Positions 2,245 through 51,133 of a DNA stretch of 64,000 nucleotides are shown one piece after another. A program made the translations under genes and the position numbers. The DNA is taken from positions 75,898 to 139,897 of the forward strand of contig CAZLDI010000007.1 of assembly GCA_964558415.1 (NCBI GenBank), given 5' to 3'. The DNA is from an uncultured Dehalococcoidia bacterium. Lineage in GTDB: Bacteria > Chloroflexota > Dehalococcoidia > SM23-28-2 > RBG-16-64-32. The stretch's first letter is position 1; every line of letters starts with the position of its first letter. The notes under the pieces are model-generated. The model searched no databases. It was given only the letters and a program-made list of their open reading frames with translations, and was not told the origin of the DNA.

Positions 2245-3063
2245 CTAGCGCTGGCAGCGCGGGCAGTAGTGGGTGCTGCGACCGGCGACCTTGGTGCGCC
2301 GGATCGCCGTCCCGCAGACGTAGCACGGCTCGCCGGTGCGGCGGAAGACGCGCACCTTCAGGTGATGACCACCCTCCCGACCGCTGGCGTCAAGGTAGTC
2401 GCGGAAGCTGGAGCCGCGGTCGCCCAGGGCTTCTTCGAGCGTTTGCCGGATGGCTGCGTGAAGGCGAGTGGAACCGGGGCGTGAGATCGAGTCCGCGGCG
2501 CGTGCGGGCCTGATACCGGCGAGGAAGAGGGCTTCGTCGGCGTAGATGTTGCCGATGCCCGCTATCGCCGCCTGGTCCAGCAGGACAGCTTTCACCGGAG
2601 CGGAGCGCCGCTTGAGGGTCGCGAGAAGGACGGTGGGGGTGAAAGCGTCTTCGAGCGGCTCCGGGCCGAGCGATCCGACGATGTGGGAGTCGTCGTCAAC
2701 CAGCCACATCGTGCCGAACTTGCGCAGGTCTATGAAGCAGAGCGACGCGCCGTCGTCCATCTGGAATCGCGCCCTCAAGTACGGACTTTCGTCACAACCG
2801 TGAGGGGAGTGGAGGAGGCGGCCGGTCATGCGCAGGTGGACGCCCCAGGTGAGGCCGCCCTGCAGTCGCAGAAGGAGATACTTGCCGCGGCGGTCGATGG
2901 CAGTGACGCGGTGGCCCGGGAGCAGCCGGCAGAAGTCGGCGGTTGGGAGGAGCTGGACGAGGCGCGGGGCGTTCGGTGAGACCCACGCCTGCGTGATTGT
3001 GCGGCCGGTGATGAGGGGGAGAAGGTCGCGGCGGATGGTTTCGACTTCGGGGAGCTCGGGCAT
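2245..3063 (-). CDS. mutM: formamidopyrimidine-DNA glycosylase (Fpg/MutM)
   Basis: Canonical N-terminus MPELPEVETIRR with catalytic Pro2/Glu3, an H2TH region, and a C-terminal zinc finger CYVCGTAIRRTKVAGRSTHYCPRCQ. The ORF caller's upstream extension (to 3162) runs into a tandem repeat; the true start is the ATG at 3063. Confidence 0.9.
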   Translation of the reverse strand: MPELPEVETIRRDLLPLITGRTITQAWVSPNAPRLVQLLPTADFCRLLPGHRVTAIDRRGKYLLLRLQGGLTWGVHLRMTGRLLHSPHGCDESPYLRARFQMDDGASLCFIDLRKFGTMWLVDDDSHIVGSLGPEPLEDAFTPTVLLATLKRRSAPVKAVLLDQAAIAGIGNIYADEALFLAGIRPARAADSISRPGSTRLHAAIRQTLEEALGDRGSSFRDYLDASGREGGHHLKVRVFRRTGEPCYVCGTAIRRTKVAGRSTHYCPRCQR

Positions 3064-3080
3064 GGGGACAGGATGGTGGG

Positions 3081-3206
3081 AGGGGGTCATAGGGGCAAGG
3101 GGGCATAGGGGCAAGGGGGCATGGGGGCATGGGGGCAAGGGGTCATAGGGGCAAGGGGTCATAGGGGCAAGGGGTCATAGGGGCAAGGGGGCAAGGGGTC
3201 ATAGGG
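3081..3206. repeat. G-rich 16-bp tandem repeat (minisatellite), unit AGGGGCAAGGGG(G/T)CAT, about 7.5 copies
   Basis: Read directly: the unit recurs at 3091, 3107, 3131, 3147, 3163, 3179 with G/T variants and partial units. It lies immediately upstream of the fpg start codon. Confidence 0.85.
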
Positions 3207-3227
3207 CGTTGTGCGGGATGGTGCGCT

Positions 3228-3292
3228 GTGAGATTCGTTCGCCCTCCGCACCGCCTTCCTTCCGCCCCCCTCGGCTCGGAATGACAGAGGGG
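3228..3292 (+). repeat. REP-like dispersed intergenic repeat copy (GAGATTCGTTCGCC...GCTCGGAATGACAGAGG)
   Basis: Shares its 5' (AGATTC-TTCGC) and 3' (GCTCrGAATGACA) ends with at least 8 other copies. It abuts the stop codon of the TPR lipoprotein gene. Confidence 0.7.
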
Positions 3293-3733
3293 TTAGCGGG
3301 CGCGGATTTCGTCGAGGAGCTTCTGGGCGGGGATGGACGTGTCCGGGTCTGAAGTGAGTTGCATCGCGTAGGCGAGGTCGGTGAGGGCCTTCTCGAAGTC
3401 AGCGAGCTGGTAGTAGGCGAGGCCGCGCTCGTAGTAGGTGTTGCCTCGATCGGGATCCAACTGGAGCGCCTTGTTGAAGTCGGTGATGGCGGCGCCGTAG
3501 TTGGCGGAGAGGAGGTAGGCGACGCCGCGGGAGTGGTAGATGAGCGGCTCTTCCGGGGCGAGGGCGACGGCGGCATCATACTCAGCGATCGCTTCTGCGT
3601 ACTTCGTTTCCTGGGCGAGGGCGACGCCGGTGTTGTGGCGCTGGAGGGCCTGCGTGCGCGCGCTGAGATCGTCGCTGCAGGTGGCGGCGACGAGGAGGGA
3701 GGCGAGTGGGAGGAACAGGAGTAGTCGCGTCAT
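3293..3733 (-). CDS. TPR-repeat lipoprotein
   Basis: Signal peptide with lipobox (LLVAATC), followed by 3 TPR-like repeats. Confidence 0.8.
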   Translation of the reverse strand: MTRLLLFLPLASLLVAATCSDDLSARTQALQRHNTGVALAQETKYAEAIAEYDAAVALAPEEPLIYHSRGVAYLLSANYGAAITDFNKALQLDPDRGNTYYERGLAYYQLADFEKALTDLAYAMQLTSDPDTSIPAQKLLDEIRAR

Positions 3734-3842
3734 GGTGTTCAGGGATTAAGACGGCGCTGGTGGCGCTCGCGTTGCGGCTCACGCGCGCCAACGATGCGAC
3801 CGAGTGGGTCTGCGGATCGCGCGGGGATTAGTGTCCGTCCCC

Positions 3843-4151
3843 TTAGGGGACGGTGATGGTGATGCCTTCGGTCTGCTGGAGTTGCTCCCAGGTGATGGTG
3901 CGCTCGGCGAGCACGGTCTGGTCGCAGACCTCGCCGTCGCAGAGGAAGCGGATCTCGTAGGTGAGGCTGCCGCGGAACTGGAGGGTCTCGAAATCACGGG
4001 AGGCGCCGGCGGAGATGAGCTCCGTCGGGACGCCGTCCTCGTAGACGACGATCGTCTGGTCGGTCTTGTTTTCGACGCGGATGGTCTGGCCGTCGTCGCA
4101 GGCGGCGACGGCGGTGGTGAGGAGGAGGACGAGTAGCAGTAACGGCGCCAC
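3843..4151 (-). CDS. small secreted lipoprotein, start uncertain
   Basis: h-region LVAPLLLLVLLLTTAVAAC with lipobox VAAC. The only in-frame start after the n-region is the GTG at 4151. The positively charged n-region (LARLANRSRG) is encoded inside a REP copy, and the only upstream ATG is at 4361. The stop codon sits in the loop of a hairpin (CCGTCCCC-tta-GGGGACGG, ~3838-3860). Confidence 0.4.
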   Translation of the reverse strand: MAPLLLLVLLLTTAVAACDDGQTIRVENKTDQTIVVYEDGVPTELISAGASRDFETLQFRGSLTYEIRFLCDGEVCDQTVLAERTITWEQLQQTEGITITVP

Positions 4152-4204
4152 GAGGAAGGCGCCCCGACTCCGGTTGGCGAGACGCGCGAGATCCTGTCCA
4201 AGAT

Positions 4205-4272
4205 GGCAAACTGTGAGATTCGTTCGCCCTCCGCCCTGCCTTCCTTCCGCCCCGCTCGGCTCAGAATGACAG
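4205..4272 (+). repeat. REP-like dispersed repeat copy
   Basis: GAGATTCGTTCGCCCTCCGCCCTGCCTTCCTTCCGCCCCGCTCGGCTCAGAATGACAGAGG, nearly identical to the copy at 3228-3292. Confidence 0.7.
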
Positions 4273-4282
4273 AGGCGGGCGT

Positions 4283-4345
4283 TGCGCAGGATGGTGGATC
4301 CCGGGATGCGTTCGCCCCCCCCACCCGCCCGACTCGGAACGGCAG
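4283..4345 (+). repeat. degenerate REP-like copy abutting the polA stop codon
   Basis: GATGCGTTCGCCCCCCCACCCGCCCGACTCGGAACGGCAGAGGGG. Its 3' end (GGCAGAGGGGTCAGG) parallels GAATGACAGAGGGGTTAGC at the TPR gene tail. Confidence 0.5.
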
Positions 4346-4350
4346 AGGGG

Positions 4351-7206
4351 TCAGGACGCAAACTCGCCGACCTCCACGGGTTCGCCGTATCGCATCTCGC
4401 CCCAGTTGCGGCCTGTTTTCGTGTCCACCTTAAGGGGAACGCACATTTCCAGGGATTTGGGCATTATGTCGATGCAGAGGGAGCGGACACCCTCCAGCTC
4501 ATCGCGGGGGCACTCGAAAATCAGCTCGTCGTGGATCTGGAGGGTCATGAGGCTGCGTAGTTTGCGGCGCTCCATCTCAGCGTCGAGGCGGTTCATCGCG
4601 ATCTTGATGATGTCGGCGGCGGTGCCCTGGACGGGCATGTTGATGGCGGCTCGCTCAGCGGCGTTGCGGACGTTGAAGTTGGTGGAGTTTATCTCCGGGA
4701 TGTAGCGCCGGCGGCCGAAGAGCGTCTCCGCGTAGCCGAGGCTGCGCACGGTGGAGGTCGTCTCGGAGACGTAGCGCTGGATGCCGGGGTACTTCTCGAA
4801 GTAGGTGCGGATGAACGTCGCGGCCTCTTCGCGGGAGATCTTTTCGCGGACTGAGAGGCCGAACTCGCTGAGTCCGTACAACACGCCGAAGTTAAAGACT
4901 TTGGCGCGCCGGCGCATTGCGGTCGTCACCTGATCAAGGGGAACGGCGAAGACCTGCGAGGCGGTGGCGGCGTGGATGTCGTCGTCGCGCAGGAAGGCTT
5001 CGACAAGGTTGGGGTCCCGGGTGATGTGGGCGATGATGCGCAGCTCGATCTGGGAATAGTCGGCCGCCAGGAGCATCGGATCCGGCCCAACGTCGCGAGC
5101 GATGAAGGCGCGTCGGATCTGCTCGCCGAGCTGTGTGCGGACAGGGATGTTCATAAGGTTGGGATTGCTGGAGGCGAGGCGTCCGGTGGCGGCGCCGGTC
5201 TGGTTGAACTCCGTGTGGATGCGGTTGGTACGCGGGTTGACGATGAACGGCAGCGTGTCGAGGTAAGTAGACTTCAGCTTGGTGAGCTCGCGGTGCTCGA
5301 AGATGAAGTCGATGACCGGATGCATGCCACGCAGGTTCTCCAGAGACTGGGCATCGGTGCTGTAGGCGCCGGTCTTGAGGCGGCGGGTCTTCGGCAGGTG
5401 CTGCTCCTCGAAGAGCACGTGCGAGAGCTGCTGAGGGGAGCCGATGTTGAACTCGTGGCCGGCGGCGGCGTAGATCTCCTCCTCGAGCCGGCGAATTTCC
5501 ATCGTGAGTGACTCCGACATCTCGCGCAGCGAGCCAGTCTCGATGGCGACGCCGTTCAGCTCCATGCGCGCCAGGACTGACACGAGCGGCATCTCGATCT
5601 CGTCGAAGAGGCTGCGCATGCCCTTCTCCTCCAGCTCCGGTTCGAGGAGATCACGCAGGCGCGCGGCGGCATCCACGGAGGCGCAGGCGTAGGCCGCCGC
5701 AGCCTCCACATCGAGCTCAGCCATTGTGAGCTGGGCGGCCTTGCGGCCAGACGGCCGCCCGTCCGGGCGAGCGCCGGCGCCGAGAAGCTGGGAGCGGTCC
5801 GGCAGCCCGATGCCCAGACGGCGTGAGGCGAGCCAGCTCAGGGCGAGCGCGCCTTCCTCCGGGCGTCCCGCGCCGCCGCCCTCGCCCAGGAGGTGGGCGG
5901 CGATCATGGTGTCGAAGTCGACGCCGCGCGCCCAGACGCCGTGGCGGGCGAGGGTGACGAGGTCCGGCTTGAGATAGTGGCCGCTGATGCGGACGTCCGG
6001 CGACTCGATGAGGGGCCCGAGGCGGGCGAGAACGGCGTCGAGCGGCAGCTGGGGGTCCTCGCCGAGGCGGACGGCGTGGCCAACGGGGATATAGTGCGCC
6101 TCGCCGCCTCCGAGACCGACCGTCAGGCCAACGATATCGGCGCGCATCGGCTCGCTGGACGTGGTCTGGGCGTCGAGCAGGAAGCGCTTCTGGTCCGCGA
6201 TGCGATCGACGACGGCCGCCAGTTGGTCTTCCGTGCGGACGGTGGTGAAGCGCTGCTCGACAGGCGATGCCGCGAGCGGCAATTGCTGCGCCTCCGGAGC
6301 GCGGTCAATGCCGTGTGGGAGGCGCGAGACGAGCGTCCGGAACTCGAGCTCCCGGAAGAGCTCGGTGACGCGCAAGGGATCGTAGTGGGCGTAGAAGTCC
6401 GCGGCGGCGAGGTCAAGCTGGACGGGCGCCTTGGTGTCGATTGTCGCGAGGTGCTTGCTCTGGCGGAGCTGGTCCGCGTTCTCGCGGAAGACGGGCTGGA
6501 AACGGGCGGGCTGGATCTCGTCGATGCGGTCGAGGAGCGCCTCGACGGATCCAAACTCGTCGACGAGCTTGACGGCGGTCTTGTCGCCGACACCCGGGAC
6601 GCCGGCGATGTTGTCGGAGGTGTCGCCCTTGAGCGCTTTGAGATCGGGCATCTGGTGGGGCAGGACACCGTAGCGGTCCTTGACGTCGGCGGCGGTCTTG
6701 TAGAGGACGGAGTCTCGCTGGTAGGGGCGGTACATCCAGAGGTGGACGCCGGGCTGGACAAGCTGGGCGATATCGCTATCCATGCTCACGAGATACGTCT
6801 CGACGCCCTGCCCAGCGGCCTGAACGGAGAGCGCGCCCATGAGGTCGTCGGCCTCGAAGCCGGGGAGCTCGCTGACGGGAATGCCGAAGACGGCGATGAC
6901 CTGGCGGCAGCGGTCGATCTGGGCGCGCAGTTCATCGGGCATAGCGACGCGCGTGGCCTTGTAGGTGTCGGTGATCTCATGACGGAAGGTCGGCCCGGGC
7001 GAGTCGAGGGTGATGATCACGTGAGTGGGCTTGAGCTCACCGAACATGGCGAGGAAGGTGTTGGTGAAGCCGAAGACGGCGCCGACAAGCTCGCCGGTGG
7101 CGCGGACCTTGAGGGGCTCCTTCATGCCGGCGAGGGCGTGGAAGGAGCGGTGGATGATGGAGTGGCCGTCGATGAGGACGAGGCGGGGGGGAGGGGTATC
7201 GCTCAC
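4351..7206 (-). CDS. polA: DNA polymerase I
   Basis: 951 aa with 5'-3' exonuclease, 3'-5' exonuclease and polymerase domains. Motifs include LIDGHSIIHR, DYSQIELRI and QVHDELIFE. Confidence 0.97.
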   Translation of the reverse strand: MSDTPPPRLVLIDGHSIIHRSFHALAGMKEPLKVRATGELVGAVFGFTNTFLAMFGELKPTHVIITLDSPGPTFRHEITDTYKATRVAMPDELRAQIDRCRQVIAVFGIPVSELPGFEADDLMGALSVQAAGQGVETYLVSMDSDIAQLVQPGVHLWMYRPYQRDSVLYKTAADVKDRYGVLPHQMPDLKALKGDTSDNIAGVPGVGDKTAVKLVDEFGSVEALLDRIDEIQPARFQPVFRENADQLRQSKHLATIDTKAPVQLDLAAADFYAHYDPLRVTELFRELEFRTLVSRLPHGIDRAPEAQQLPLAASPVEQRFTTVRTEDQLAAVVDRIADQKRFLLDAQTTSSEPMRADIVGLTVGLGGGEAHYIPVGHAVRLGEDPQLPLDAVLARLGPLIESPDVRISGHYLKPDLVTLARHGVWARGVDFDTMIAAHLLGEGGGAGRPEEGALALSWLASRRLGIGLPDRSQLLGAGARPDGRPSGRKAAQLTMAELDVEAAAAYACASVDAAARLRDLLEPELEEKGMRSLFDEIEMPLVSVLARMELNGVAIETGSLREMSESLTMEIRRLEEEIYAAAGHEFNIGSPQQLSHVLFEEQHLPKTRRLKTGAYSTDAQSLENLRGMHPVIDFIFEHRELTKLKSTYLDTLPFIVNPRTNRIHTEFNQTGAATGRLASSNPNLMNIPVRTQLGEQIRRAFIARDVGPDPMLLAADYSQIELRIIAHITRDPNLVEAFLRDDDIHAATASQVFAVPLDQVTTAMRRRAKVFNFGVLYGLSEFGLSVREKISREEAATFIRTYFEKYPGIQRYVSETTSTVRSLGYAETLFGRRRYIPEINSTNFNVRNAAERAAINMPVQGTAADIIKIAMNRLDAEMERRKLRSLMTLQIHDELIFECPRDELEGVRSLCIDIMPKSLEMCVPLKVDTKTGRNWGEMRYGEPVEVGEFAS

Positions 7207-7228
7207 GGGGGGATTATAGCAAGCGGCA

Positions 7229-7304
7229 ATGGGTCAGCGGGGGCAGGGGGTCAAATGGGGCAAAGGGTCGACAGGGGCAAGGATCAACGGCGCAGGAGGG
7301 GTCA
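7229..7304. repeat. G-rich motif cluster (GGGTCA / GGGGCAAGG) related to the fpg-upstream minisatellite, in the polA/MaoC divergent intergenic region
   Basis: ATGGGTCAGCGGGGGCAGGGGGTCAAATGGGGCAAAGGGTCGACAGGGGCAAGGATCAACGG shares GGGGCAAGG and GGGTCA cores with 3081-3206. Confidence 0.4.
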
Positions 7305-7323: not shown

Positions 7324-8247
7324 ATGACAGTGAGAGAACCTGCTGCTATCATTCGGCCTACTATGGCTGACCTTTCGTACGATGGGATTGAGGTGGGGAA
7401 GGAGTACGGGCCGTACTATTACCCGCTGAAGGAGCGGATTGGGCGGCACCTGGAGGCGGTGGAGAACGCGCATCCGTGGCACAACGGGCGGTCGCCGTGG
7501 GGGCCGCCGGTGGCGCCGCCGACCATCCTGGGGAACGCGGCGATGCGGTTTCTGGACGACTTCGGGCCGGTGCCGCCGGGGACGCTGCACGCCAAGCAGG
7601 AGATCGAGACGGCGGCGGCGCTGCGGTTGGACCGCAGGCCGATCGGGTACGGTAAGTTCGCCGACAAATACGAGAAGCGGGGCCGGCGGTGGTTTGTGTT
7701 CGAGACGCGCTGGCGGGATGAGACTGGGCTGATCATCGGGAAGAGCCGGATCACGATGGTGTTTCCGAAGGAAGAAGGAAGAAGGAAGGAGGAAGGAGGA
7801 GGGGAGCCGAGAACCGAGAAGCGAGAAGCGGAGCCGGCCCGGAAGAGCGAGTTAGCTGCGATTACGCGCGTTCTGACGCAGGAGAAGATGACGGCGTATA
7901 GCGAGGACTCTGCGAACGCGCTGCGGGGGTCGTCGATTCATGTGCAGCCGGAGGCGGCGAAGGCGGCGGGGTTCGAGCGGACGGTGGCGCAGGGGCTGAT
8001 GGCGGCGGACTATATCGGCGAGCTGATGGAAGAGGCGCTGGGCAGAGAGTGGTACGAGTACGCGGGGCTCTCGGTGACGTTCCTGAAGCCGATCCTCTGC
8101 GGGGACAGGCTGACGGCGAACGGGCGGTTGAAAGAGGAGGCGGAGGAGGGGGCGGTGGTGCGCCGGGTGTATGAGCTGTGGTGCGAGAACCAGCAGGGGG
8201 ACGTGGTGGCGGCGGGGACGGGGAGTTCGCTGGTGATGCCGGGGTAA
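7324..8247 (+). CDS. MaoC-like (R)-specific enoyl-CoA hydratase / hotdog-fold dehydratase with an internal low-complexity linker
   Basis: C-terminal hotdog domain. A K/E/R-rich linker (PKEEGRRKEEGGGEPRTEKREAEPARKSE) is encoded by purine-rich tandem repeats at ~7760-7840. A longer upstream ORF (5893..) is antisense to polA and was rejected. Confidence 0.75.
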   Translation: MTVREPAAIIRPTMADLSYDGIEVGKEYGPYYYPLKERIGRHLEAVENAHPWHNGRSPWGPPVAPPTILGNAAMRFLDDFGPVPPGTLHAKQEIETAAALRLDRRPIGYGKFADKYEKRGRRWFVFETRWRDETGLIIGKSRITMVFPKEEGRRKEEGGGEPRTEKREAEPARKSELAAITRVLTQEKMTAYSEDSANALRGSSIHVQPEAAKAAGFERTVAQGLMAADYIGELMEEALGREWYEYAGLSVTFLKPILCGDRLTANGRLKEEAEEGAVVRRVYELWCENQQGDVVAAGTGSSLVMPG

Positions 8248-8338: not shown

Positions 8339-9184
8339 ATGGCTGAATACGCACGGCCGGACTCGCTGGTGTCCACGCAATGGGCGGCGGACAATCTGAA
8401 CAACCCGAAGGTGCGGCTGATCGAGGTGGACGTCGATTCCGCGGCGTACGACACGGGGCACGCGCCGGGGGCCGTGGGCTGGAACTGGAAGTCCGACCTG
8501 GAGACGCAGTTGCAGCGGAACATCGCGGACAAGGAAGGGATGGAGAAGCTGCTTTCCGACGCCGGTGTGGACGGCGACACGACTGTGGTGCTGTACGGCG
8601 ACAACAACAACTGGTTCGCGGCGTACGCGCTGTGGGTGATGGAGTACTACGGGCTGGAGAACGTGAAGCTGATGAACGGGGGACGCAAGAAGTGGGTGGA
8701 AGAGGGGCGGCCGATGTCGACCGAGGCTGCGAAGCACGCGAAGGGCGGCATCAAGCTGGGCAGCCCGAACGCGAAGATCAGGGCGATGCGTGACGAGGTG
8801 CTGAGCCACGTCGGAAAGGCCGGCGGCGCTATGGTGGACGTACGCTCGCCGAAGGAGTACTCGGGAGAGATGCTGGCGCCGGAGAACCTGCCGCAAGAGG
8901 GCTCCCAGCGGGGCGGCCACATCCCGGGGGCGAAGAGCATCCCGTGGGGGCTGGCCTGCAACGAAGACGGGACGTTCAAGAGCGCGGACGAGCTGGTGGA
9001 GCTGTACGGCGGGCAGGGCGTCACGAAGGACAAGGACGTGATCGCCTACTGCCGCATCGGCGAGCGGTCTGCGCACACGTGGTTCGTGCTGACGCACCTG
9101 CTGGGTTATCCGAACGTGCGCAATTACGACGGCTCGTGGACAGAGTGGGGGTCGCTGGTGGGGGCGCCGATCGAGAAGCAGTGA
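8339..9184 (+). CDS. thiosulfate/3-mercaptopyruvate sulfurtransferase (two-domain rhodanese)
   Basis: Tandem rhodanese domains with the active-site Cys in CRIGERSAHTWF. RBS AAGGAGA upstream. Confidence 0.85.
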   Translation: MAEYARPDSLVSTQWAADNLNNPKVRLIEVDVDSAAYDTGHAPGAVGWNWKSDLETQLQRNIADKEGMEKLLSDAGVDGDTTVVLYGDNNNWFAAYALWVMEYYGLENVKLMNGGRKKWVEEGRPMSTEAAKHAKGGIKLGSPNAKIRAMRDEVLSHVGKAGGAMVDVRSPKEYSGEMLAPENLPQEGSQRGGHIPGAKSIPWGLACNEDGTFKSADELVELYGGQGVTKDKDVIAYCRIGERSAHTWFVLTHLLGYPNVRNYDGSWTEWGSLVGAPIEKQ

Positions 9185-12068: not shown

Positions 12069-13316
12069 GTGAGCCAGAGACTGCCCCTGGAAGGCGTCAA
12101 GGTAGCGGACTTCTCCTGGTTCGGCGCGGGGCCGATCTGCGGGCGGCTGCTCGCTGACTACGGGGCCACGGTGGTGCGGATCGAGTCGGAGACGCACCTG
12201 GACTCGCTGCGGATCGTGGCGCCGTTCGCGAAGGGGAAGACGGGGTACAACGTCAGCGGGTACTTCAACAACTACAACGCTGGGAAGCTGGGCATCCTGC
12301 TCAACCTGAACACGGATGAGGGGATACACATCGCGCACAAGTTGATTGAATGGGCGGACGTATTCCTGACCAACATCACACCGCGCACGATTGAGCGCTG
12401 GGGGTTTACGTACGACAAGCTGATAGAGCTCAACCGAGAGATCATCGGCGTTTACGTGCCGATGCAGGGCTTCGATGGCCCACACAGGGACTTCCTGGGG
12501 TTTGGCGCGGTGCTGACGCCGATAACGGGGTATAACCATCTGTCGGGGTTCGCGAACCGTCCGCCGTTCGGACTGGGGACGAACTATCCGGACTACGTGA
12601 TCAACCCGGGGCACACGTTCGTCGCCATCATGGCCGCGCTGCGCTACAGACGGCGGACGGGGAAGGGGCAACGGATCGAGGTGGCGCAGATCGAGTCTTC
12701 GGTGGCACCCCTGGGGCCGGCGGTCTTCGACTACACGGCGAACGGGCGGGTGCAGACGCGCAGCGGGAACGGAATAGCGAACGCCGCGCCGCACAACGCG
12801 TTCAAGTGCAGGCCGCTGACGGACGGCGGCAGGCCGATGGATGAGCGCTGGATCGTCATCGCCTGCTTCAGCGACGACGAATGGAGCGCGTTCGTGCAAG
12901 CCATGGGGAGCCCGGAATGGGCGCGCGACACGAAATTCTCGACCCTTGCCGCAAGGAAGTCGAACGAGGCGGAGATGGACGCGCATATCAACGCCTGGAC
13001 GGCGGACAAGGACGCGTACAAACTGATGGCTGAGCTGCAGGGCCGTGGCGTGCCGGCCGGGGTGGTGCAGAGCGCGCGCGAGATCCTGGACGTGGATGAG
13101 CACATGAAGGCGCGGGGGTATTACGTGTACCTGAAGCATCCGGAGGCGGGCCGTCACGCGCACGACGGGCCGCCGTTTGTGCTCTCGAAGACGCCAGGGC
13201 GGCTGCGGTCGCCGGCACCGTGCCTGGGGGAGCATACGGAGTACGTGTGCAAGGAGATCCTGGGGTTGGACGACGAGGGGATCGCGGAGCTGATGGTGGC
13301 GGGGGCGCTGGCGTAG
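12069..13316 (+). CDS. family III CoA-transferase (second, tandem paralog)
   Basis: VKVADFSWFGAGPICGRLLADYGATVVRIE. GTG start 9 bp after the upstream gene. Confidence 0.85.
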   Translation: MSQRLPLEGVKVADFSWFGAGPICGRLLADYGATVVRIESETHLDSLRIVAPFAKGKTGYNVSGYFNNYNAGKLGILLNLNTDEGIHIAHKLIEWADVFLTNITPRTIERWGFTYDKLIELNREIIGVYVPMQGFDGPHRDFLGFGAVLTPITGYNHLSGFANRPPFGLGTNYPDYVINPGHTFVAIMAALRYRRRTGKGQRIEVAQIESSVAPLGPAVFDYTANGRVQTRSGNGIANAAPHNAFKCRPLTDGGRPMDERWIVIACFSDDEWSAFVQAMGSPEWARDTKFSTLAARKSNEAEMDAHINAWTADKDAYKLMAELQGRGVPAGVVQSAREILDVDEHMKARGYYVYLKHPEAGRHAHDGPPFVLSKTPGRLRSPAPCLGEHTEYVCKEILGLDDEGIAELMVAGALA

Positions 13317-13330
13317 GGGAGATTTCTGCG

Positions 13331-13422
13331 CACGGATAATGTTCACACCCCTCTCCCCCGCCGGATTCCTTCGCGAAGGGACATGAGCCCACGTTCGAGC
13401 CAGGTGGCCGCTCAGAATGACA
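13331..13422 (+). repeat. REP-like dispersed repeat copy
   Basis: GTTCACACCCCTCTCCCCCGCCGGATTCCTTCGCGAAG...GCTCAGAATGACA. Confidence 0.75.
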
Positions 13423-13430
13423 CGATCGGG

Positions 13431-13515: not shown

Positions 13516-13595
13516 TTCACACCCCACACGCCGCCAGATTCCTTCGCGAAGAAGCACCGTGCCACGCCCCGAATGTGGCAGTCGCTCAGAATGAC
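13516..13595 (+). repeat. REP-like dispersed repeat copy
   Basis: TTCACACCCCACACGCCGCCAGATTCCTTCGCGAAG...GTCGCTCAGAATGAC. Confidence 0.75.
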
Positions 13596-13597
13596 TT

Positions 13598-13640
13598 GGG
13601 GATCGCGGAAGTGACGGCGGTGGCGGCGCTGGCGTAGGGA
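13598..13640 (+). repeat. diverged third copy of the CoA-transferase 3' tail
   Basis: GGGATCGCGGAAGTGACGGCGGTGGCGGCGCTGGCGTAGGGA encodes GIAEVTAVAALA*, against GIAELMVAGALA* in the native tail. Confidence 0.6.
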
Positions 13641-23383: not shown

Positions 23384-23500
23384 ACGCTCCATACCCTCTA
23401 TCCGTAGCAATACCGTCTTCTATCAGTAATACTATCACATGCCGGGTCGACGCAGTTGAGATGTGGGCGGGCATGCCTGAACGCCCGGGGCGCGGCCTGA

Positions 23501-23579
23501 TCCACCACGCCGCCAACCCCAGATTCCTTCGCGGCGAGAGTAATCGCAGGTTGCGAGCGTTGGGGCGCTCAGAATGACA
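23501..23579 (+). repeat. REP-like dispersed repeat copy
   Basis: CCACCACGCCGCCAACCCCAGATTCCTTCGCGGCGAG...GGCGCTCAGAATGACA. Confidence 0.75.
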
Positions 23580-23605
23580 GAGGGAGCCGGGCTCCGCGGG
23601 AAAGC

Positions 23606-31568: not shown

Positions 31569-31595
31569 TGGGGATAGCCTGCGACCGGAACCGCT

Positions 31596-31677
31596 TGACC
31601 CACCGCGCCTCCGCCACCCGGATTCCTTCGCGGCAAGCGGGGTCGGCGCGTTCCACTGGATGGGCGCTCAGAATGAC
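31596..31677 (+). repeat. REP-like dispersed repeat copy
   Basis: ACCCACCGCGCCTCCGCCACCCGGATTCCTTCGCGGCAAG...GGGCGCTCAGAATGAC. Confidence 0.75.
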
Positions 31678-31683
31678 GTGGGT

Positions 31684-34528: not shown

Positions 34529-34647
34529 GCTGCCTCCACCTTGTTCTCAACCGGACTCAGTATAAGGGAGGCACGAAGCGTCAAAGCAACACGCCGGTAG
34601 GCGCATGCCAGCGAACGCTGGCCTGACGGATGCTAGAATCGCACGTG

Positions 34648-36739: not shown

Positions 36740-37591
36740 CTACGAAGCGACCTCGCTCCGAATCTCCTTGAGGATTTGGACGTTGGCAGCATCCGGCCCT
36801 TCGTTGTCGAAGCCGGGGACTTCGAGTAGGAAAGGGACCTCGGCGAATGCGGGGTGGGAGAGGAGGTTCGCGAAGCCGTCGCGACCGATGTGGCCGTCGC
36901 CGATGTTCTCGTGGCGGTCGATGCCGCCAGCGAGCGGACACTTCGAGTCGTTGGCGTGGACGGCGACGAGGCGCTCGAGGCCGATCTCGCGGTCGAACTC
37001 GTCCATCGCGGAGTCGAGGCCCGGACGGGTCTTCACGTCATAACCAGCGGCGAACGAGTGCTGCGTATCCAGGCAGACTTTGACGCGAGGCGAGCCAGCC
37101 TCGCGAGCGATCTTGCCGAGCTCGGAGAACCGGGAGCCGATCGCGCCGCCCATGCCGGCGCTGTTCTCAAGGATGAGCCAGGTGTCTTCCGGCGTTGCGT
37201 CGATCACGCGCCGGACGTAGCCGGTGACCTGGGCGACCCGAGCGTCGTAACCGGCGCCCTTGTGCGAGCCGAGGTGGAAGATGACGCCCTTCGCGCCGAG
37301 CAGAGAGGCGGCCTTCATCTCCGCGACGAGCGCGTCGTACGACTTCGCGAGCAAGTCGGGCTTATCGGAGGCTAAGTTCACCAAGTAGAGGCCGTGGATG
37401 AAGGCGGGCTCGATGGCGGTCTCGGCGACCTTAGCCCGATAGGCGGTGAGTTCGTCATTGCCGAAGGTCTTCCGGCGCCAGGCCTGGGGGGCGCCGCAGA
37501 AGATCTGGACGGCTTCAGCGCCCATCTCGGCCGCGCGCTCGATGCCCTTGTCGACGCCGCCGGAGGTCTTGACGTGCGCACCAATTTTCAT
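36740..37591 (-). CDS. nfo: endonuclease IV (AP endonuclease family 2)
   Basis: MKIGAHV...HAPYLVNL-type motifs, with metal-binding His/Asp/Glu residues throughout. Confidence 0.92.
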   Translation of the reverse strand: MKIGAHVKTSGGVDKGIERAAEMGAEAVQIFCGAPQAWRRKTFGNDELTAYRAKVAETAIEPAFIHGLYLVNLASDKPDLLAKSYDALVAEMKAASLLGAKGVIFHLGSHKGAGYDARVAQVTGYVRRVIDATPEDTWLILENSAGMGGAIGSRFSELGKIAREAGSPRVKVCLDTQHSFAAGYDVKTRPGLDSAMDEFDREIGLERLVAVHANDSKCPLAGGIDRHENIGDGHIGRDGFANLLSHPAFAEVPFLLEVPGFDNEGPDAANVQILKEIRSEVAS

Positions 37592-37694
37592 GGGGGGAGT
37601 ATATCAGTGAGGCAGATTTCAGCGCCCCGCTCGTCCTTCGAGAGCCTCCCTCCTGAGGCAGGCAGGCAGGATGGGCGCCTGTACGGTCATCGGC

Positions 37695-41133: not shown

Positions 41134-41550
41134 ATGACGCCCCCCAAGATTCTGACTCCGTTGCTCCTGGCACTCGTCGCGCTGCCTGGCCTTGTGGCGG
41201 CGTGCGGCGGTGGTGAAGACGACTCCAGTTTCCGCCCCGGCGCGCTCACGGACCCCGGCGACGTGCCAACCGCGACGCCGTGGGAGGAGGCTCCTGAGAT
41301 CATCATCATCGATCCTAACGCCATCATCCCCGTCGGGCCGGAGGCGACGCCGGTGCCGACGACACCCGGCGGCGAGCCGGGCGAATGCGGCCCGAAGTAC
41401 ACAGTCGCGTCCGGCGACAACTTCTCGTCGATCGCGGAGAAGTGCGGCGTCACCACGCAAGGCATCGTGGACGCGAACCCGGGTGTGGACCCGCGTACGC
41501 TGCACATCGGGGACGTGATCAATATTCCCCAGAGCATGACCAGCCAGTAG
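41134..41550 (+). CDS. LysM-domain lipoprotein
   Basis: Lipobox LVAAC. C-terminal LysM (YTVASGDNFSSIAEKCGVTTQGIVDANPGV). Confidence 0.75.
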   Translation: MTPPKILTPLLLALVALPGLVAACGGGEDDSSFRPGALTDPGDVPTATPWEEAPEIIIIDPNAIIPVGPEATPVPTTPGGEPGECGPKYTVASGDNFSSIAEKCGVTTQGIVDANPGVDPRTLHIGDVINIPQSMTSQ

Positions 41551-41579
41551 GCGACCCACGACCAGTAGGCGACCCACGA
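41544..41579 (+). repeat. 18-bp tandem duplication spanning the LysM gene stop codon (CCAGTAGGCGACCCACGA x2)
   Basis: Read directly from the sequence. Confidence 0.8.
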
Positions 41580-41662
41580 CCGCGGTTGCCCGCGATTCGT
41601 GCGCTATGCTAACATCGGCGCGCGGCGGCTCCGGCAATCGAAGTCGCCTATAGCTCAGACGT

Positions 41663-45794: not shown

Positions 45795-45827
45795 AGGCCG
45801 CAACGTCGACTCCCGCGATCGGGTAGT

Positions 45828-45910
45828 CTGACCCACGACCCCACGCCGCCCAGATTATTCGCGAAGATACGGCTCGCCGCGATCGGGGCGTGTCGCCGCT
45901 CAGAATGACA
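45828..45910 (+). repeat. REP-like dispersed repeat copy
   Basis: GACCCACGACCCCACGCCGCCCAGATTATTCGCGAAG...CGCCGCTCAGAATGACA. Confidence 0.7.
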
Positions 45911-45944
45911 TCGAGGCGACCGTTCAGTCGCCCGGAGGTGGCGC

Positions 45945-49746: not shown

Positions 49747-50961
49747 ATGGGATCTAATCAGGCCATAGAGCGCGCGAAGGAGCACTTCGCGCATGTAGTC
49801 GCCGGACAGCTGGCGCGGGTGGAGCGGATGAAGGCGGCGGAGGACTGGACGGACTACGGGTCGCTGAAGCCGATCATTCTCGGCGTCTGCGGGGGCGACG
49901 GGATCGGGCCGTACATCACCGCGGAGGCGCGGCGGGTGCTGGCGTTCCTGCTGGCGCCGGAGGTGGAGAGCGGGAAGGTGGTCTTCCGCACGATCGAGGG
50001 GCTGACGATCGAGAACCGCGCGCAGCAAAACACGGCGATACCGGACGACGTGCTGGCCGAGCTGAAGAAGTGCCATGTCATCCTGAAGGGCCCGACGACG
50101 ACGCCGCGCGCGGGGGACCAGTGGGCGAACATCGAGAGCGCGAACGTGGCGATGCGGCGGGAGCTGGACTTGTTCGCGAACGTGCGGCCGGTGCGTGTGC
50201 CTGAGCAGGGGATCGACTGGATCTTCTTCCGCGAGAATACGGAAGGGGCGTACATCCTGGGCAGCCACGGGGTGAATGTGACGGAGGACCTGGCGATCGA
50301 CTTCACGGCCGTGACGACGCAGGGGAGCGAGCGGATCATCAAGCTGGCGTTCGATCACGCGAGCCGCAACGGGATCAACAAGGTGACGGTGGTGACGAAG
50401 GCGAACGTGGTGAAGACGACGGACGGGAAGTTTCTGGACACGGCGCGGAGGATCTCGAAGGATTACCCGGAGGTGGTCTGGGACGACTGGTACATCGACA
50501 TCATGACGGCGAAGCTGGTGGACCCGAAGCGGCGGACGGAGTTCAAGGTCGTCGTGCTGCCCAACCTTTACGGCGACATCCTGACGGACGAAGCGGCGGA
50601 GTTCCAGGGGGGCGTGGGGACCGCGGGCAGCGCGAACATCGGCAAGCGGTATGCGATGTTCGAGGCGATCCACGGCAGCGCGCCGCGCATGGTGGACGAG
50701 GGACGCGCGGACTACGCCGACCCGAGCAGCATGATCCGGGCGGCGGCGATGCTGCTGAACCACACCGGTTTTGCGGACCGGGGCAAGCGGCTGGAGATGG
50801 CGCTGGACGTGTGCGGGAACCTGGAGAAGCGGCTGGTCGTGACCGGACGGCCGACGGGGGCGAAGGGGTCGGAGTTTGCCGATTACATCATGGAGACGCT
50901 GCAGGACTCGGGGCTGGAGGAGAAGTGGCGGGGGTACCAGGATGGAGGAAGTAGGAAGTAG
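49747..50961 (+). CDS. icd: isocitrate dehydrogenase (isocitrate/isopropylmalate dehydrogenase family)
   Basis: NLYGDILTD motif and the SANVAMRRELDLFANVRPV region. Genomic context with acnA and mdh. Confidence 0.75.
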   Translation: MGSNQAIERAKEHFAHVVAGQLARVERMKAAEDWTDYGSLKPIILGVCGGDGIGPYITAEARRVLAFLLAPEVESGKVVFRTIEGLTIENRAQQNTAIPDDVLAELKKCHVILKGPTTTPRAGDQWANIESANVAMRRELDLFANVRPVRVPEQGIDWIFFRENTEGAYILGSHGVNVTEDLAIDFTAVTTQGSERIIKLAFDHASRNGINKVTVVTKANVVKTTDGKFLDTARRISKDYPEVVWDDWYIDIMTAKLVDPKRRTEFKVVVLPNLYGDILTDEAAEFQGGVGTAGSANIGKRYAMFEAIHGSAPRMVDEGRADYADPSSMIRAAAMLLNHTGFADRGKRLEMALDVCGNLEKRLVVTGRPTGAKGSEFADYIMETLQDSGLEEKWRGYQDGGSRK

Positions 50962-51080
50962 GAAGAAGGAAGGTGGAGGTAGGAAGCCCGTGGGGCATAT
51001 CACCCTGGAGCGGGACGAGGGTCGCGGCTAACGGGGACGCTTCGACGTGTCCCGCCGGTTGTTGGAGACCGTGAGCTAAC

Positions 51081-51114
51081 CCGGACGGATTCTTCGCTGC
51101 GCTCAAGAATGACA
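51081..51114 (+). repeat. short REP-like copy immediately 5' of the mdh RBS
   Basis: CCGGACGGATTCTTCGCTGCGCTCAAGAATGACA. Confidence 0.5.
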
Positions 51115-51133
51115 GCAGAATGAGGAGGAATGA

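Follow-up and report, generated by a model that had tools for sequence, protein, structure and literature searches.

Background

Repeats of G-rich heptamers, GGGAATC in Xanthomonas and GGGGA(C/T)T in Nostoc, were described by Rehm et al. 2015 and form quadruplexes in vitro (PMC4692102). These repeats are over-represented in the non-coding DNA between aligned ORFs, where they lie nearer to the 5' neighbour of the G strand; their length varies between close relatives, they occur with all gene classes and they have no identified function (PMC4692102). The work cited there includes heptanucleotide tandem repeats of heterocystous cyanobacteria, as in Calothrix PCC 7601 (PMC4692102). Intergenic TAACTGA repeats are found in Beggiatoaceae, Cyanobacteria and Bacteroidetes and abut start codons (PMC4679880). 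In H. influenzae, an ATCTTTC heptamer is repeated upstream of hmw1A and hmw2A in 11-63 copies and is copy-number-variable (PMC12721329). The structural behaviour of such DNA was studied in E. coli, where quadruplex-forming repeats fold mainly with the G strand as the displaced non-template strand (PMC7023247), and where the effects of G4s on expression depend on position and strand according to work cited in PMC4692102. In mammals, oxidised promoter quadruplexes coupled to base excision repair regulate genes (PMC8445369, PMC6547423).

The present analysis concerns a G-rich tandem array upstream of fpg in an uncultured bacterium. The window, i.e. the whole stretch of DNA that was analysed, is 64 kb long, and the survey covered this part of the source genome in two assemblies. 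The array resembles the repeats of Rehm et al. in having short head-to-tail units with one G tract each, at least four tracts and G4 capability. It is likewise intergenic between co-oriented ORFs (a TPR gene and fpg, both on the minus strand) and precedes an ORF at a distance below 50 bp (18 bp), with its G-rich strand on the non-coding strand of that ORF. Of the two flanking genes, the one at the 5' side of the G strand is the nearer. In both cases close relatives already differ in length and sequence, and neither kind of repeat is linked to phase-variable gene classes. The differences are that the units measure 7-10 bp, 8 on average, and form a 16-bp dimer instead of a strict heptamer, that there are 15 tracts against the preferred 4, that a putative -35 box is overlapped and that the host is an uncultured bacterium instead of Xanthomonas or Nostoc; two loci were seen in the 64 kb covered. 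In anatomy and position the fpg array is a further, long, 8/16-bp example of the G4-capable intergenic repeats, and this poorly understood class thus gains a member from a likely Chloroflexota relative.

The other described systems are less close. With the Calothrix and TAACTGA repeats the array shares short tandem intergenic units which in many cases stop just a few nucleotides ahead of a start codon, and relatives of the window organism carry CTAACTC/TAACTCC-type heptamers directly before the fpg ATG, comparable to the TAACTGA repeats; unlike those families, which have one conserved heptamer at many loci per genome, the fpg array has a unit of different sequence and length. As in the H. influenzae hmw repeat, a short tandem repeat that is pyrimidine-rich on the sense strand stands directly upstream of a gene. 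The hmw and classical phase-variable repeats lie in the 5' UTR or between -35 and -10, are polymorphic and belong to surface-structure genes, none of which was found at fpg. The likeness to the oxidation-responsive quadruplexes of mammals (VEGF, NTHL1; PMC8445369, PMC6547423) is a potential quadruplex at the promoter of a base-excision-repair gene, whereas the mammalian mechanism is eukaryotic and OGG1/APE1-dependent and the fpg array is not conserved among relatives.

Structure of the array and start of fpg

The array is genuine and far above chance expectation. Read on the plus strand it measures 122 bp and is made of 15 head-to-tail units of 7-10 bp (Table 1), each with one G4-5 tract, in an average register of 8 bp and with a higher-order unit of 16 bp, the dimer GGGGCAA + GGGG(T/G)CATA. 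The units are arranged in the order GGGGGTCATA, GGGGCAA, GGGGGCATA, GGGGCAA, GGGGGCAT (1-5), GGGGGCAT, GGGGGCAA, GGGGTCATA, GGGGCAA, GGGGTCATA (6-10) and GGGGCAA, GGGGTCATA, GGGGCAA, GGGGGCAA, GGGGTCATA (11-15); the unit counts were six for GGGGCAA, four for GGGGTCATA, two each for GGGGGCAA and GGGGGCAT, and one each for GGGGGTCATA and GGGGGCATA. The base composition of the plus strand is 54% G, 23% A, 12% C and 11% T. TRF reported periods of 8, 16, 24, 40 and 56 (scores 123-220) and 7.9 copies at the 16-bp period, and the repeat search revealed an 8-bp start-to-start register that is continuous across the array. The 15-mer consensus GGGGCAAGGGGKCAT, with up to 2 mismatches, matched 10 times in the window, 9 of the matches being inside the array; the shuffled expectation was 0.40 and a count of 10 was reached in 0 of 100 shuffles.

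The preliminary description had presented the array as a 16-bp minisatellite reaching the 3' flank of the TPR gene. The tandem array itself is confirmed, while its basic unit proved to be of 7-10 bp with the 16-mer as a dimer, and between its far end and the TPR stop codon (3293-3295) there is a gap of 87 bp, 81 bases of which are a copy of a dispersed element. The remaining structural points of that description agree with the present results, namely the 18 bp to the fpg ATG, the intergenic position with the C-rich complement on the fpg sense strand, the quadruplex potential and the spurious nature of a Pro/Cys-rich extension of Fpg.

Table 1. Features of the fpg region and of related loci in the 64-kb window
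Feature	Position	Strand	Remarks
fpg/mutM, 272 aa	2245..3063	-	true start ATG at 3061-3063, from profiles and homologues
Spurious in-frame N-terminal extension of the listed 305-aa ORF	3064..3162	-	non-coding; 33 residues
Putative weak -10 hexamer CATCCT	3070..3075	-	-12..-7; leaderless geometry
Array (compound minisatellite)	3082..3203	G-rich on +, C-rich on fpg sense strand	15 units
Putative -35 hexamer TTGCCC	3093..3098	-	-35..-30 from the A of the fpg ATG; in second repeat unit
Partial last G tract, GGG	3204-3206		distal array edge; sequence reading
Dispersed intergenic element copy, ~80 nt	3210..3290	+	86% identical to 4195-4275
TPR-repeat protein, small, signal-peptide-like N-terminus	3293..3733	-	upstream of fpg, co-oriented
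polA	4351-7206	-	gene in same cluster as fpg
Sister array, degenerate	7225..7288	unstranded	TTGCCCC / TGACCC alternation; TRF period ~17, 3.8 copies
nfo (endonuclease IV)	36740-37591		TIGR00587, 224 bits vs cutoff 130

The array is non-coding. The Pfam domains Fapy_DNA_glyco, H2TH and zf-FPG were identified in Fpg, with the alignment beginning at residue 1: residues 1-119 matched positions 1-117 of the Fapy_DNA_glyco model (PF01149), and NF002211, the fpg equivalog of NCBIfam, covered residues 1-272 with 285 bits (cutoff 212). Full query coverage was obtained in all of the best 120 database homologues. Sixteen homologues exceed 273 aa; they show the (M/V)PELPEVE start or internal insertions, and 2 have short, unrelated N-terminal extensions. 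The Fpg of the window begins Met-Pro-Glu-Leu-Pro-Glu-Val, the start expected of Fpg/MutM. Because the profiles and homologues start at residue 1, the listed 305-aa ORF is an artefact of an in-frame ATG within the array.

A second, degenerate array starts 19 bp upstream of the polA start codon and is 79% identical to a 28-nt reference taken from the fpg array. The dimer motif TTGCCCC/TGACCC was found within the 64-kb window in these two arrays only, and as no isolated single site. In the old polA array the loops have changed but the G tracts are kept, a hint that selection or a mutational bias acts on the tracts. It is suggestive that both arrays precede base-excision-repair genes; because they are 4 kb apart in one gene cluster, the two arrays are not independent observations. 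No array was present upstream of nfo, the third base-excision-repair gene of the window, and the idea of an array-marked base-excision-repair regulon is weakened. The presence of a similar degenerate array before polA, also a base-excision-repair gene, is an observation that would not be expected from amplification purely by chance.

Second assembly and relatives

The locus was recovered in a second assembly (JGI 3300010391, contig Ga0136847_10310223), which is 99.9% identical over 4.8 kb and is probably from the same sample as the window. The array in this contig has identical length and copy number, with one G-to-A SNP at 3172 (GGGG to GAGG). Logan contigs of SRR6155509 ended in the dispersed element or inside fpg, short of the array, and an exact-protein look-up with the TPR and 442-aa neighbour proteins returned the same JGI contig together with Logan contigs that stopped short of the array.

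Seven related loci (L202-L209), with Fpg 71-78% identical, were compared. Array and G4 potential were found upstream of fpg in none of the seven when 150 nt upstream were scored, the sense-strand G4Hunter values being -0.05 to -0.57 against -1.95 in the window. At 80 more distant fpg loci listed (species-representative genomes, 36-53% identical) no C/G-run array was seen. The best named Fpg matches among those listed from the species-representative genomes were Dehalococcoidia metagenome-assembled genomes with 49-53% identity, and the metagenome relatives had 65-78% identity; the assignment of the organism to Chloroflexota is on these grounds tentative. The relatives carry short pyrimidine-rich repeats of 7-8 nt that reach the fpg start codon, for instance TTGCTCC TAACTCC TAACTCC TGAATCC in L207 and TTTGCAAG TTTGCCCGG TTTGCTGG TTTGAT in L206. 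Heptamer arrays also occur at their other spacers: ACCTCGT in 27.6 copies in L203, TCTTACC in 6 copies in L202, and CTTACCT in 8 copies as well as TCTGACC in L207. These are in all cases pyrimidine-rich on the C-rich genome strand, and they indicate that short tandem repeats are a general, fast-evolving feature of the clade.

A search with the exact two-unit pattern gave no match in species-representative genomes or viral contigs. With a looser pattern, the at least 120 matches listed from metagenome contigs were mostly (GGGGCAA)n heptamer arrays of unrelated organisms; such arrays were common among them in contigs of 37-75% G+C, and they often stood immediately behind a stop codon, and an inverted C-rich copy often came next. 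Neither strain variants nor the fpg locus itself were among these listed matches.

Promoter and proposed origin of the array

The upstream regions of fpg were aligned. A TTG at a fixed distance (about 35 nt) before the fpg start is invariant in the window and in six relatives with 71-78% Fpg identity. The geometry in the window is TTGCCC, a 17-nt spacer, CATCCT, GTCCCC and ATG, and ATCCT is common to the window, L207, L205 and L202, the three relatives reading TTG(C/T)(T/C)C-N17-(A/G)ATCCT-N6-9-ATG. L204, L206 and L209 read TTGC(C/A)(C/A/G)-N17/18-TTT(G/C)AT-N6-start. The -10 candidates of these three (TTTGAT/TTTCAT) lack the conserved A at position 2, and the promoter assignment for this reason draws its support from positional conservation only. 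The fit of the putative fpg promoter to consensus is weak (TTGCCC 4/6, CATCCT 3/6), and a consensus promoter/terminator scan of 2900-3900 returned no promoter-like site, and no intrinsic terminator between TPR and fpg. The window contains leaderless genes whose -10 box is 5-8 nt ahead of the start codon; they include polA (TGCTATAAT-N6-GTG), nfo (TGATATACT-N6-ATG) and the ORF at 34630 (TGCTAGAAT-N5-GTG). GGAGG Shine-Dalgarno sequences precede many other window genes, and none was found before fpg in the window or in the 7 relatives. Taken from the sequence, the fpg promoter is putatively a weak sigma-70 promoter with no leader or a very short one. Internal TTGCCC-N17-TATGAC pairs were also considered as tandem promoters and were rejected, as the scan found none and TATGAC lacks the conserved final T. 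In L203, fpg overlaps the upstream gene, which suggests expression from an operon there. This overlap and the weak consensus of the promoter count against the amplification reading given below.

The array unit is orthologous to the segment that carries the TTG box. In the alignment, CCCCTTGCCCCTATGACCCCCTCCCACCATCCTGTCCCC-ATG of the window corresponds to CCCCTTGCTCCTAACTCCTAACTCCTGAATCCTGTCCCCC-ATG of L207, where the segment is single-copy, and the sense-strand segment CCCCTTGCCCCTATGACC corresponds to the single-copy CCCCTTGCTCCTAACTCC of L207, the carrier of the TTG box. On balance, the array is probably a young, lineage-specific, non-coding minisatellite that arose when the -35/spacer segment of the putative fpg promoter was amplified, and that belongs to the known G4-capable repeat class. 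The 16-17-bp segment CCCCTTGCCCCTATGACC, single-copy in relatives, would have been amplified about 7.5-fold in tandem in this lineage, most likely by replication slippage or unequal exchange. In a core promoter TTGCCC-N17-CATCCT-N6-ATG, the -35 hexamer TTGCCC and the first part of the 17-nt spacer would come from the two promoter-proximal units, and the remaining 13 or so units would be surplus copies upstream of this core. Units could then be gained or lost without a change in the -35/-10 spacing, so that an on/off switch is not expected. The effect of the array on fpg would be at most quantitative, by way of DNA structure in the upstream region, of extra -35 boxes acting as decoys or of a barrier to read-through from the TPR gene. 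The amplification reading gives a concrete view of the origin of such an array, in which the -35 segment of a promoter is multiplied in tandem and is oriented with the strand bias of the genome.

Alternative explanations

Regulatory readings of the array (a G4/i-motif element, a Rho site or structure-free leader, a protein-binding array) are possible, each with a low probability. The G-quadruplex capacity is strongly predicted. With a G4Hunter value of 2.04 over 122 nt, the array ranks first in the window in both height and length of the signal, and its 15 tracts of at least four G are separated by loops of 3-5 nt. ViennaRNA with DNA parameters and quadruplex energies predicted a fold of four tandem quadruplexes with -103 kcal/mol, and -7 kcal/mol when the quadruplex energies were left out; these energies are approximate. 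These values favour a DNA-structure regulator, in which up to four template-strand quadruplexes and/or sense-strand i-motifs would modulate fpg and, via the sister array, polA, possibly as a sensor of guanine oxidation. The occurrence of only two such dimer arrays in 64 kb, both before the repair genes fpg and polA, and the retention of G tracts in the degenerate polA array point in the same direction. So do the precedent of the mammalian oxidised-promoter G4s (PMC8445369, PMC6547423) and the modulation of E. coli expression by G4s in work cited in PMC4692102. A conserved promoter quadruplex was, however, not found, since 0 of 7 orthologous fpg upstream regions have a potential quadruplex within 150 nt, and the lack of an array at nfo, the location of the two arrays only 4 kb apart, by which they are not independent, and the SNP of the second assembly, which interrupts a G tract, speak against this explanation as well.

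The orientation of the array is a further argument against a structural regulator. The G strand is antisense to fpg and is the template strand for all sense transcription, so the displaced strand is C-rich, the least G4-prone orientation in E. coli (PMC7023247). The G-rich strand of the array also coincides with the G-rich strand of the genome. The window has a G+C content of 64.7% and a strongly positive GC skew in every 4-kb bin (+0.07 to +0.20), with 462 runs of at least four G against 104 of C on the plus strand. The G and C runs per kb were 7.75 and 1.20 in plus-strand genes, 4.91 and 1.45 in minus-strand genes and 8.35 and 3.99 in spacers. As the excess of G runs is present in both gene orientations, it is a property of the genome strand and is not derived from transcription, and the orientation of the array merely tracks this bias. 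The DNA-structure regulator is accordingly considered unlikely.

G runs are preferred sites of 8-oxoG formation, and 8-oxoG is removed by Fpg. In a more specific proposal the fpg and polA G-tract arrays would be oxidation-sensitive quadruplex/i-motif elements, and guanine oxidation in the array or processing by Fpg would alter the DNA structure of the promoter and raise base-excision-repair transcription; its probability is slight. Such a system, if true, would be a bacterial, self-referential analogue of the mammalian oxidised-promoter-G4 switch, and we know of no bacterial precedent for it. If the array does tune a DNA-repair gene, repeat instability or guanine oxidation would be tied to the control of mutation rate, although nothing in the present results requires it.

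An element acting at the RNA level is as doubtful as the structural regulator. The array would then lie in read-through from polA to TPR and fpg or in a long fpg leader, and would serve as a Rho loading site or a structure-free standby region. Rho favours C-rich, G-poor, unstructured RNA. In the Rho variant the C-rich untranslated RNA (54% C, 12% G in the sense strand) would insulate fpg from upstream transcription, and in the standby variant the structure-free RNA would let translation start at the fpg AUG without a Shine-Dalgarno sequence. Of 200 dinucleotide shuffles of the whole spacer, 199 folded better than its sense RNA (z = +2.27), which indicates that the C-rich repeat would be unstructured if transcribed. 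All four genes from polA through a small ORF and the TPR gene to fpg share the minus strand, and the missing Shine-Dalgarno sequence and intrinsic terminator described above agree with an RNA-level element, as does the proposal that heptamer repeats abutting start codons are translational elements (PMC4679880). On the other side, AUG triplets occur in all three frames of the array, one of them opening the spurious extension, which is awkward for a real leader, and the relatives manage without an array. The Rfam search (whole window at gathering threshold, 2900-4450 at E <= 1) gave no RNA family.

The preliminary description had proposed phase- or copy-number-variable expression of fpg. As a contingency locus, the array would slip frequently in repeat number and set fpg up or down in a heritable, reversible mutator/anti-mutator state. 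Fifteen near-perfect short units are an obvious substrate for slippage, the absence of the array in relatives implies evolutionary turnover, and graded control by a heptamer in 11-63 copies is described upstream of H. influenzae hmw (PMC12721329). The present data do not bear the proposal out, and the array as a genetic switch has no support. The copy number is the same in the two assemblies, and the array lies upstream of the core promoter and includes the putative -35 box; the 35 nt from this box to the ATG are outside the variable part and the array is outside the ORF, so that unit changes would leave promoter spacing and reading frame unchanged. The gene downstream is the housekeeping gene fpg of a free-living environmental bacterium and does not belong to the surface, host-interaction or restriction-modification classes. 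The absence of the array in relatives, cited above for turnover, also weighs against a variable expression system, and with the G strand as template, G4 folding driven by transcription is least favoured in E. coli (PMC7023247). The G-rich repeats of Xanthomonas and Nostoc span all gene classes, are not associated with phase-variable genes, and phase variation was judged unlikely by the authors (PMC4692102). From this we infer that a switch is absent at the fpg array, and a contingency locus is rated as quite improbable.

A protein-binding array is very improbable. In this explanation an iteron-like or operator protein would bind the TTGCCCC-N2-TGACCC dimer and coat the upstream regions of fpg and polA, in line with the restriction of the dimer to these two loci in 64 kb and with the regular 16-bp periodicity. 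No candidate regulator gene is adjacent, the relatives do not share the motif in their fpg upstream regions, isolated single sites are missing elsewhere in the window, and the near-identical units point to recent amplification and not to maintained operators.

Fpg catalysis needs an exposed N-terminal proline. Translation that begins with the ATG at 3162 and reads the array as a Pro/Cys-rich extension of the N-terminus can be dismissed for practical purposes: the ATG is in frame 99 nt upstream of the fpg start with no stop codon between, but the profile models and homologues start at MPELPEVE, the repeat period of 8/16 is not a multiple of 3, the catalytic proline would be buried in the longer protein, and the gene caller on the JGI contig picked the short form. 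For annotation the start of fpg is thereby fixed, and ORF callers are prone to read such arrays as Pro/Cys-rich extensions.

Strand asymmetry and a dispersed intergenic element

The strand composition was analysed over window 1-64000. The GC skew of +0.07 to +0.20 per 4 kb was unusually strong and uniform, and the + strand carried a 4.4-fold excess of G4+ over C4+ runs; neither depended on gene orientation. The window as a whole seems to belong to a single replichore, in a genome whose strand asymmetry is extreme. A dispersed intergenic element of ~80 nt was present in nine copies in the 64-kb window, all on the + strand whichever way the adjacent genes point. The copies end at the 3' side in GCTC(A/G)GAATGACA and frequently contain GATTCCTTCGCG, and the element was without match in Rfam.

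Location of repeat arrays and dispersed element copies (window coordinates unless a locus is named)
Feature	Location	Strand	Context
Dispersed element	3210-3290	+	adjoins fpg array
Dispersed element	4195-4275	+	
Dispersed element	4282-4350	+	
Dispersed element	~13335-13425	+	
Dispersed element	~13520-13620	+	
Dispersed element	~23490-23582	+	
Dispersed element	~31590-31680	+	
Dispersed element	~45825-45913	+	
Dispersed element	~51040-51117	+	
Degenerate array, alternating TTGCCCC/TGACCC	7225-7288		between divergent polA and MaoC-like gene
GAAGGAA, AGGAAGT repeats	7767-7830 and 50939-50986		within or at end of ORFs
Direct repeat CCAGTAGGCGACCCACGA, 2.1 copies	41544-41581		end of one ORF and spacer ahead of carboxyltransferase gene
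(ACCTCGT) x27.6	L203 5978-6170		spacer
(CTTACCT) x8	L207, one of 8907-8963 / 12160-12213		spacer
(TCTGACC) x4	L207, one of 8907-8963 / 12160-12213		spacer
(TCTTACC) x6	L202 4176-4219		spacer

Repeat arrays at repair genes and in relatives

The G-rich array upstream of fpg has a degenerate sister at polA. At the polA start (7195-7206), the GTG start codon lies 6 nt downstream of the extended -10 box TGCTATAAT, an arrangement that implies a leaderless polA mRNA. The endonuclease IV gene nfo, taken as a control against the idea of an array specific to repair genes, likewise showed a leaderless arrangement, TGATATACT-N6-ATG, and had no repeat array upstream (gene and upstream region, 36740-37694).

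The long heptamer arrays of the relatives (L202, L203 and L207) occupied other spacers of the syntenic region, and at the same spacer position different genomes carried different unit sequences. Among the metagenome matches listed (L082-L201), (GGGGCAA)n and its variants GGGGTAA, GGGACAA, GGGGCGA and GGTGCAA were widespread, and the G+C content of the contigs carrying them ranged from 37 to 75%. A stop codon directly preceded many of these listed arrays, and many were followed within ~50-100 nt by an inverted C-rich array (for example in L108, L116, L145, L155, L161, L162 and L175), with which the G-rich array would form a long hairpin.

Other repeats and variants

The purine-rich heptamer repeats encode Lys/Glu/Gly-rich low-complexity stretches; one forms the linker in the MaoC-like protein, and the second is the 3' end of an isocitrate-dehydrogenase-like gene. 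The direct repeat is a perfect one of 18 bp. The small TPR-repeat protein gene is frameshifted in L001, the JGI contig that represents the locus in a second assembly, by a 1-nt deletion (L001 1155-1165 versus window ~3640-3650). Either a mistake in assembly or a genuine polymorphism could account for the deletion.
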